Part shown: positions 4,029 to 4,873 of the stretch, piece after piece
How positions within the stretch are numbered: position 1 is the first letter of the stretch
Layout of the letters: every line of letters starts with the position of its first letter
The notes under the pieces: generated by a model
Databases searched by the model: none
Seen by the model: only the letters and a program-made list of their open reading frames with translations
What the model was told of the DNA's origin: nothing
Assembly (NCBI GenBank): GCA_964016885.1
Contig: OZ024766.1
Coordinates: 19,902,001 to 19,966,000 of the forward strand
DNA: 64,000 nt
Direction of reading: 5' to 3'
From: Eledone cirrhosa
Taxonomy: Eukaryota
Position numbers and translations under genes: made by a program

Positions 4029-4215
4029 AATATAATTACCTCATTACCAGAGGTTTCCCGAATAAGATGAATACAAGAAACGTCTTCATTCGTTCGTCAG
4101 ACAAGGCAATTTAAAATATAGGCTATGTTTTAAATTGCCTTGTCTGACGAACGAATTAAGTCGTTACTTGTATTCATCTTATACGGGAAACCTCTGGTAA
4201 TGAGGTAATTATATT
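4029..4215. mobile_element. Palindromic element with a hammerhead in each arm
   Basis: Arms of ~90 bp centred near 4122, with a few mismatches. Confidence 0.85.
4133..4210 (+). ncRNA. Type I hammerhead ribozyme (mirror copy at 4034-4111, minus)
   Basis: aattgccttgt-CTGACGA(4144)-stem II-GAAA(4187)-cctctgg-TA-atgaggtaatt. Stem I is 11 bp including GU pairs and the cleavage triplet is GUA. Confidence 0.75.
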
Positions 4216-4235
4216 ATTTATTATACATTATATAT

Positions 4236-4457
4236 AAATTAGAAAATAGAATGGGTTTCACCGTATCTTTTGACTAAAGAAATTTTAGTCTGATAATGGG
4301 GTTTAGAACCCTCAGATAAATGGAAAAAGATAAGTATTGATGTACATGTACATCAATACTCATCTTTTTCCATTTATCTGAGGGTTCTAAACCCCATTAT
4401 CAGACTAAAATTTCTTTAGTCAAAAAATACGGTGAAAGCTATTCTATTTTCTAATTT
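4236..4457. repeat. Near-perfect ~220-bp palindrome centred on gtacatgtac (~4346)
   Basis: The arms are direct reverse complements. Only degenerate hammerhead-like cores are present. Confidence 0.9.
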
Positions 4458-4503
4458 CAAACCTGCTCACTGTTTCAAAACAACATACTTACTTGTCATA
4501 TAT

Positions 4504-4533
<30 letters not shown>

Positions 4534-4543
<10 letters not shown>

Positions 4544-4873
4544 AGATCAAAAGATGGTTAAAGGAGTTCCATGTATTTTATTATGCGCATTTCAAAAACA
4601 AACATCATCATGCAATAATATTTGTGTTTTCATCAGATAAAACAGGAGAACATGATATGAAGGCTAAAAAACACTTGTGGATAGTTCAGTTTTAAATCAA
4701 CATATGTTGATTTAAAACTGAACTATCCACAAGTGTTTTTTAGCCTTCATATCATGTCCTCCTGTTTTATCTGATGAAAACACAAATATTATTGCATGAT
4801 GATGTTTGTTTTTGAAATGCGCATAATAAAATACATGGAACTCCTTTAACCATCTTTTGATCTTATATATTAT
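4534..4873. mobile_element. Near-perfect 340-bp palindrome centred on catatg (4703/4704) with a hammerhead in each arm
   Basis: The ORF track shows nearly the same peptide on both strands (4432+ and 4712-), confirming the mirror symmetry. Confidence 0.9.
4763..4833 (+). ncRNA. Minimal type I hammerhead ribozyme (mirror copy at 4574-4644, minus)
   Basis: tgttttat-CTGATGA(4771)-aaacacaaatatt...gatgtttgttttt-GAAA(4814)-tgcgca-TA-ataaaata. Stem I is 8 bp, stem II ~12 bp, stem III is the palindrome ATGCGCAT, and the cleavage triplet is AUA. Confidence 0.8.

Follow-up and report, generated by a model that had tools for sequence, protein, structure and literature searches.

Head-to-head insertions of Penelope-like elements and a tRNA-headed repeat in one TA tract of Eledone cirrhosa

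Penelope-like elements (PLEs) of the Hydra clade are described as having a DKT motif, a CxCX5C linker and CxxC and CxH motifs, and as being generally <3 kb long (Craig et al. 2021, PMC8557442, in excerpt). Head-to-head pseudo-LTRs (pLTRs) with palindromic junctions have been reported in PLEs, and a self-priming model has been proposed for those of rotifers (PMC3846280, in excerpt). In vitro, the anole element PAc nicks both DNA strands, begins reverse transcription at two internal starts that define the tail, uses uncut RNA and is predicted to be dimeric (PMC11167929, in excerpt). How PLEs make head-to-head copies is left open in the excerpted text of all three papers (PMC3846280, PMC8557442, PMC11167929). 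Minimal hammerhead motifs showed no cleavage as monomers (PMC4209133), and the hammerhead motifs of PLEs have been reported to be protein-dependent (PMC11167929, in excerpt). Among short non-autonomous elements, retrozymes may count as PLE-dependent SINEs (PMC8969392, in excerpt), and SM-alpha, which combines a Pol III-type promoter with a hammerhead, is the nearest precedent for one of the elements described below (via the review PMC6765202, in excerpt).

Three insertions in one TA tract

The window analysed is a 64,000-nucleotide stretch of Eledone cirrhosa contig OZ024766.1 (positions 19,902,001 to 19,966,000, forward strand). A palindrome scan gave 10 matches, of which three (P1, P2 and P3) are of high complexity and the other seven are TA microsatellite. 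P1 has arms of 93 bp (4029-4121/4123-4215) with five mismatches and a spacer of 1 nt, P2 arms of 111 bp (4236-4346/4347-4457) with four mismatches, and P3 arms of 175 bp (4529-4703/4704-4878) with two. The three clustered near-perfect palindromes of the original prediction are thus present, but the insertions extend beyond its limits of 4029..4873, as it overlooked that every insertion has a tail on one side: to the left as far as ~3934 in P1, and to the right as far as ~4499 in P2 and ~4963 in P3. Because each palindrome carries such a tail, the cluster extends over ~3934-4963.

The three palindromes are separate head-to-head insertions of very common mobile elements in one TA tract. The P1 tail (3934..4028, minus strand), recognized by alignment, is the long 3' end of PLE family 1 and ends in (TA)n; the same two end positions are seen again in other family-1 copies. 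It is followed by the P1 pair of family-1 pLTRs (4029..4229), centred on 4122 and with the short end as its right arm, and by a short TA spacer (4230..4235). The P2 pair (4236..4457) is made of the 3' portion, beginning at m61, of a non-autonomous, tRNA-headed element of 259 bp; it is centred on CATG at 4345-4348, lacks a hammerhead and continues into a plus-strand tail of ~40 nt (4458..4499), as delimited by comparison of family-2 copies. A (TA)n/(CA)n spacer (4500..4535), whose border with P3 is ambiguous, precedes the P3 pair of family-3 pLTRs (4529..4878). This is centred on ATAT at 4702-4705, the inferred transcription start on both strands, and comparison of family-3 copies assigns it a plus-strand tail of ~83 nt followed by (TA)n (4879..4963).

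The original prediction also proposed that one TA tract had been targeted repeatedly, and the census of family-2 loci bears this out. A family-3 arm lies within 800 bp in 5 of 70 such loci, where motif density alone would predict 0.58 (p 0.0003, or 0.006 if the density is doubled), and a family-1 arm lies equally close in 1/70; shared TA tracts are therefore reused. More repeat fragments occupy the same TA tract as P1-P3. A further TA-embedded repeat at 4990-5131, with a 20-bp inverted arm at 4990-5038, is matched in 17 loci including the window and is likely another small head-to-head insertion.

Several other features of the window were recorded. At 15572-15895 lies a fourth head-to-head palindrome, which bears hammerheads and has its tail on one side only; its family is related to family 1, and similar pairs occur in loci L068, L164 and L160. 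An additional hammerhead-like motif is present at 22960-23020, and a sequence similar to it forms an inverted pair in L084. Positions 1140-1666 and 3114-3465 hold three 173-bp copies parted by TA runs and a 49-bp tandem array within a common interspersed repeat. The GC-rich end of an ORF at 3-1001 contains the motif MTPPPNLTPPP, known from KAT6/MOZ C-termini; it had no match in Pfam or the ESM Atlas. Long C2H2 zinc-finger ORFs, two of them confirmed by Pfam, cluster at 20621-58896, a region that also includes a reverse transcriptase (RT) fragment at 28068-28580.

PLE ends and their hammerhead motifs

In the 3.0-Gb assembly searched for motifs, a 26-nt motif of the P3 family has 15,577 matches (0 with the control) and the motif of the P1 family has 3,316. 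The exact centre of P3 is shared by 795 loci; that of P1 is not recurrent. Judged by the predicted proteins of their long copies, P1 and P3 represent the pLTR ends of PLEs from two Hydra-type families, which encode an RT with a C-terminal GIY-YIG domain. Long family-3 copies carry an ORF of ~800 codons between direct arm copies (L041, L042) or inverted ones (L031); the parent ORF P0001 measures 821 aa from stop to stop. The family-1 parent ORF (L119:5896-8052) measures 719 aa, and the two proteins are 38% identical. Alignment of the family-3 protein reveals YRDD and SDKT, the linker CxCX5C and, at the C terminus, CxxC and CxH. SDKT is present in both families, and the linker reads CNCRIKNKC / CSCRIKSEC, the CxxC motif CNLC / CTLC and the CxH motif CLH / CPH, while the RW(K) position is RWK in family 1 and RWT or RWI in family 3. 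Searches of Pfam and PDB sequences with the PLE ORFs returned no significant match; their ESM Atlas neighbours, at 0.95-0.98, include HTH_animal, GIY-YIG or RVT_1 in part of the members.

Both families conform to the EN+ PLEs, in which a single ORF joins RT to a GIY-YIG endonuclease. L041 and L042 have the organization pLTR-ORF-pLTR, with direct pLTRs, and an inverted truncated copy and a one-sided tail are likewise features of the two families. Like Hydra-clade elements with a C-terminal endonuclease, they have the DKT motif, the CxCX5C linker, the CxxC and CxH motifs around the endonuclease end and, in family 1, RWK, as well as a pLTR hammerhead, (TA)n targeting, an inverted 5'-truncated copy and a tail on one side (PMC8557442, in excerpt). 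TA repeats directly follow the ends of most family-1 and family-3 arms. The same excerpted account gives a general length below 3 kb, a tail of 30-40 bp and RWK, whereas the period of family 3 is 3.7-3.9 kb (3,940 bp in L041, 3,709 in L042), tails here are 75-83 nt and family 3 has RWT/RWI (PMC8557442). An interpretation of the elements as MITEs was rejected on account of their unequal ends and of the RT encoded in long copies. The Penelope-type origin first proposed for the inverted pLTRs accordingly stands for P1 and P3, whose parent ORFs were found; the tRNA-headed, non-autonomous nature of P2 had been overlooked. Several further Hydra-type PLE families, with ~30-70% protein identity (e.g. 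L012:2744, L100, L148, L161, L185), and at least five more hammerhead families were encountered in 0.88 Mb of loci.

A hammerhead descriptor (CUGANGA...GAAA...UH plus stem I) finds cores at +4144 and -4100 in P1 and at +4771 and -4636 in P3, all reading outward, so that the outward-facing ribozymes described initially on both strands of these palindromes are recovered in every arm; P2 has no core under the same descriptor. The P1 motifs occupy 4137..4206 (plus strand, predicted cut after 4199) and 4038..4107 (minus strand, a putative ribozyme). Those of P3 occupy 4763..4833 (plus strand, with UGCGCA as the palindromic loop III and a cut predicted after 4825) and 4574..4644 (minus strand, likewise putative). 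By the descriptor, both arms of P1 and P3 contain the core and stems I and II of minimal type I hammerheads, and they are similar to published examples in their long stem II and minimal stem III with a palindromic loop (PMC4209133). They differ in that the usual G10.1-C11.1 pair is absent from families 1 and 3 and in that family 1 often has CCGA for CUGA. Rfam did not score the P1 and P3 motifs as hammerheads, and its miRNA matches at the locus were set aside as due to hairpins and TA repeats. CTGATGA or CTGACGA forms the core in 68 of 72 readable family-3 arms, with 28 more arms truncated or unread; 13 of 28 readable family-1 cores are CCGA, with C replacing U4. Four arm differences fall within the stem II region of the right-arm ribozyme of P1, and the free fold of this motif is not a hammerhead.

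The twin-ribozyme geometry that drew attention to the locus is ordinary for PLEs and already in print: dual minimal hammerheads lie '~100-700 bp' apart 'in opposite strands' (PMC4209133). The original prediction asked whether hammerhead orientation is random genome-wide. Among the first 100 matches per family listed on contig C1, neighbours within 6 kb are arranged outward/inward/direct in 28/0/3 cases for family 3, 11/2/3 for family 1 and 19/0/3 for family 2; orientation is thus non-random, in favour of the original prediction. Outward orientation is a rule of these families and has been published as such.

A tRNA-headed element without a hammerhead

The family to which P2 belongs has 2,141 genome-wide matches to its motif and 2,939 to a tail motif covering two subfamilies. 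Its unit measures 259-261 bp and that of a sister subfamily 271 bp, arranged as tandem dimers to trimers. Full heads in other copies score 32-47 bits on Rfam RF00005 (gathering 29), ARAGORN calls a tRNA, with mixed anticodons, in 9 of 12 loci, and the head has 592 exact matches. Raw reads that cross 4345 upstream into the tRNA head number 160 and 151. Family 2 has a tRNA-like head with A and B boxes, as do tRNA-derived SINEs, and a T5 run directly after the tRNA could stop Pol III. The promoter boxes are lost from the copy in the window, which retains at 4345..4355 (plus strand) a remnant of the head comprising the 3' strands of the T-arm and acceptor. The body of the element folds weakly in consensus (-7.0 kcal/mol), with a double change in 1 of 14 pairs. 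In one copy (L129:1585-1690), the head is enclosed by ~16 bp of further stem from the flanks, with the T5 run in the 3' strand. The sister subfamily at L294:1017-1840 keeps the tRNA-like head, has a longer tail and is both inverted and in tandem.

Across 71 loci (70 plus the window), family 2 forms 44 head-to-head pairs, no inward pairs and two direct ones, and 39 of the 44 combine one long and one short end. As in families 1 and 3, the target is (TA)n and the 3' ends point outward. Arm starts concentrate at m61-62 (48/123), where CATG lies in the T-arm, and the exact centre of P2 is shared by 485 loci. With 44 head-to-head pairs and two fixed 3' ends, the family does not have the single orientation, simple-repeat 3' tail and LINE partner of a LINE-type insertion. 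The P2 family likely uses Penelope-type enzymes, with a partner PLE assumed; no PLE sharing sequence with it was matched in ~0.88 Mb of loci or among 30 of the 10,596 candidate GIY-YIG loci genome-wide.

A hammerhead in family 2 was ruled out. Neither CUGANGA nor UUGANAA occurs on either strand of the monomers tested (L129, L126, L294), one subfamily has GATA in place of GAAA, and a parent core sought genome-wide gave seven scattered matches, the level expected by chance. The exclusion extends to permuted hammerheads, which still require CUGAnGA (PMC10085705, in excerpt). As with non-LTR retrozymes, the units are short, tandem and non-coding, but they lack the hammerhead that each retrozyme unit carries. 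Schistosome SM-alpha and metazoan non-LTR retrozymes are likewise short tandem non-coding units (PMC6765202, PMC7229834, bioRxiv 10.64898/2026.07.22.740005, all in excerpt); SM-alpha has a Pol III-type promoter, and PLEs are the proposed mobiliser of these elements (PMC6765202, PMC7229834), both parallels to family 2. In contrast to these elements as the excerpts describe them, family 2 lacks a hammerhead core on both strands, retains the complete cloverleaf and bears the PLE insertion signature in its copies. A small-RNA-derived head in a non-autonomous retroelement is also known from tRNA-derived SINEs and from TRIMp3 (Helenus, Ajax, Cassandra; PMC10886601, in excerpt). These ride LINE or LTR machinery (PMC10886601), whereas family 2 has neither poly(A) nor LTR ends, and its copies, inserted head-to-head, have two fixed 3' ends. 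In literature titles and abstract openings, no tRNA-headed, ribozyme-free PLE parasite was found; Repbase, Dfam and the supplements of PMC8557442 and PMC13282606 lay outside this scope and may contain such families.

Junctions and the mode of insertion

The junction census covered 64 family-3, 38 family-1 and 71 family-2 loci, all from contig C1, of which 24/64, 14/38 and 6/71 respectively were picked for pairs or tandems; the other 40 family-3 loci came from the remaining clusters. The tail is on one side only in 44 of 49 head-to-head pairs of family 3 and in 13 of 16 of family 1. Arms of one pair are closely alike: in family 3, diagnostic sites differ by 2.9% within pairs and by 41.4% between loci (42 pairs), with 6 of 138 sites differing in pairs spaced >=300 bp, and in family 2 the corresponding values are 6.6% and 40.6% (34 pairs). 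Of 36 resolved family-3 junctions, 20 have a short-end arm that extends further 5', 10 have symmetric arms and six have a longer tail arm; rows for L031 and L034 are each off by one period and cancel out in this tally. In the 20 junctions with the more extended short-end arm, neither arm contains the other. Tail-only arms also exist (e.g. L167, L168, L173, L174, L188, L194, L195), and in 10 family-3 pairs the inferred start is the end of one arm but not of the other. Junction overlaps measure 1-6 nt in 16 of the 36, two junctions are blunt and 18 have unassigned bases (null mean overlap 0.77 nt).

Many family-3 arms stop at TC|ATATG. Of the 27 arms truncated at ATATG, which were hand-sorted from 42 rows with 15 set aside as subfamily read-through, 12 have an extra G just before this sequence, at a position that is C in the genome (p 0.001 assuming 18% G and 0.02 assuming 25%). 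A G at the cDNA end fits reverse transcription of the cap. None of the 64 family-3 loci has an arm 5' end at the predicted ribozyme cut (t125), the nearest being t128, t130 and t134. In one long copy (L031:2615), a 3.7-kb arm begins right after the tail position of an upstream pLTR, as if one RT had met another on the same RNA.

Taken together, two PLE ends and one tRNA-headed repeat were probably each inserted head-to-head into the TA tract by a Penelope-type enzyme that copied one RNA twice, onto both sides of the cut. The enzyme would nick both DNA strands, and reverse transcription would begin at two fixed internal sites, yielding the tail end and the short end. The template of family 3 would be a capped, uncut pLTR transcript starting at ATATG. 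Both of its cDNAs would run off the RNA 5' end, sometimes adding G opposite the cap, and would anneal through the self-complementary ATAT to give the recurrent palindrome without a spacer. In family 2, the cDNAs may instead stall at the T-arm of the tRNA, or end there, and CATG would join them. On this account the palindromes would be by-products, probably promoterless dead ends rather than a regulated ribozyme switch. The insertions share palindromic junctions, a tail on one end and, as proposed here, two RT starts and an uncut RNA template with Adineta vaga Penelope and anole PAc (PMC3846280 and PMC11167929, both in excerpt). Later steps of insertion are left open in the PAc excerpt (PMC11167929). 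Weighing against this account, the junctions are not uniformly microhomologous, half of them having unassigned bases in place of overlap. Three tail-tail pairs of family 3 and two short-short pairs of family 1 do not fit the simple rule; two further family-3 pairs are unclassified.

Other origins of the palindromes are less probable. A single cDNA, or an antisense template, might fold back and copy itself, with later asymmetric deletion making the arms unequal; this is close to the template switch first suggested for the locus, and the Adineta vaga excerpt favours self-priming, perhaps on an antisense template (PMC3846280), whereas the present census favours a single capped sense RNA as the source of two cDNAs. 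Self-priming would explain why arms share subfamily variants and why 10 of 36 junctions are symmetric, and arms that match but differ in length would also result from fold-back with asymmetric central deletion or from homogenisation at a later stage. It accounts poorly for the tail-less arm extending further 5' in 20 of 36 pairs, for tail-only arms and for the 10 pairs in which one arm is intact to the start, several of them carrying the extra G and therefore indicating that the template was a capped sense RNA; moreover, a cDNA with ATAT at its end could presumably not snap back without a loop. Self-priming is thus an unlikely source, and the original prediction holds as to Penelope-type insertion, with the template switch fitting the census less well than two separately primed cDNAs. 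That the palindromes are fold-back chimeras of assembly or library is the most improbable reading of all. Although no read or contig among those examined spans the locus, the arms differ at 2-5 sites and have family-specific fixed ends and tails, the exact centres of P3 and P2 are common to 795 and 485 loci, and head-to-head joints of the P3 family occur in raw Illumina reads of a second study, in which the start-site end is joined to a tail-only arm in 97 reads of X10 and 14 (one start) of X11. These arm differences, recurrent centres and independent joints make an artefact unlikely.

A functional locus, in which read-through RNA toggles between hammerhead cleavage and a long hairpin that is edited by ADAR or diced to siRNA, is highly improbable as well. 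The cluster lies ~3 kb downstream of the plus-strand ORF ending near 1001, so host read-through is possible, and any transcript would give long dsRNA (hairpin energies of -135, -162 and -276 kcal/mol for P1, P2 and P3). The competition between self-cleavage and dsRNA formation that had been envisaged is nevertheless not borne out: the constrained hammerhead fold of P3 is at +1.5 kcal/mol, leaving the hairpin favoured by well over 200 kcal/mol, and each palindrome transcript contains a single sense minimal hammerhead, of a kind without monomer cleavage (PMC4209133) or reported as protein-dependent (PMC11167929, in excerpt). Against function also stand the C for U4 in 13 of 28 readable family-1 cores and the hundreds of similar palindromes in the genome. 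Nor do rare variants of the copies have an A>G excess, although counts are small (A>G vs T>C, 3 vs 2 among shared variants of family 3 and 1 vs 4 in family 2). Passive editing of a read-through hairpin is possible.

The new parts of the locus are its middle, tRNA-headed element and the junction evidence; twin priming by PLEs was not found in literature titles and abstract openings. There is about an even chance that P2 is an undescribed small-RNA-headed PLE parasite, ribozyme-free and with a tRNA promoter, a PLE counterpart of SINEs and TRIMp3, and that with family 3 it records the missing step of PLE integration: twin priming on a single uncut sense RNA, one start from each nicked strand, with the insertion closed by the self-complementary 5' end of that RNA. 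From the thousands of young copies in this genome it is predicted that the capped transcript begins at ATATG, that the two RT starts lie 83 nt apart, that both arms of a pair come from one RNA and that ribozyme cleavage is not required. The existence of a hammerhead-free, tRNA-headed element with PLE-type ends suggests that PLE parasites extend beyond retrozymes and that mobility does not depend on the ribozyme; copies of this family would be mis-annotated as tRNA genes or MITEs. Together, these elements give rise to spacer-less palindromes that number at least in the hundreds and could be a source of dsRNA and of genome instability.
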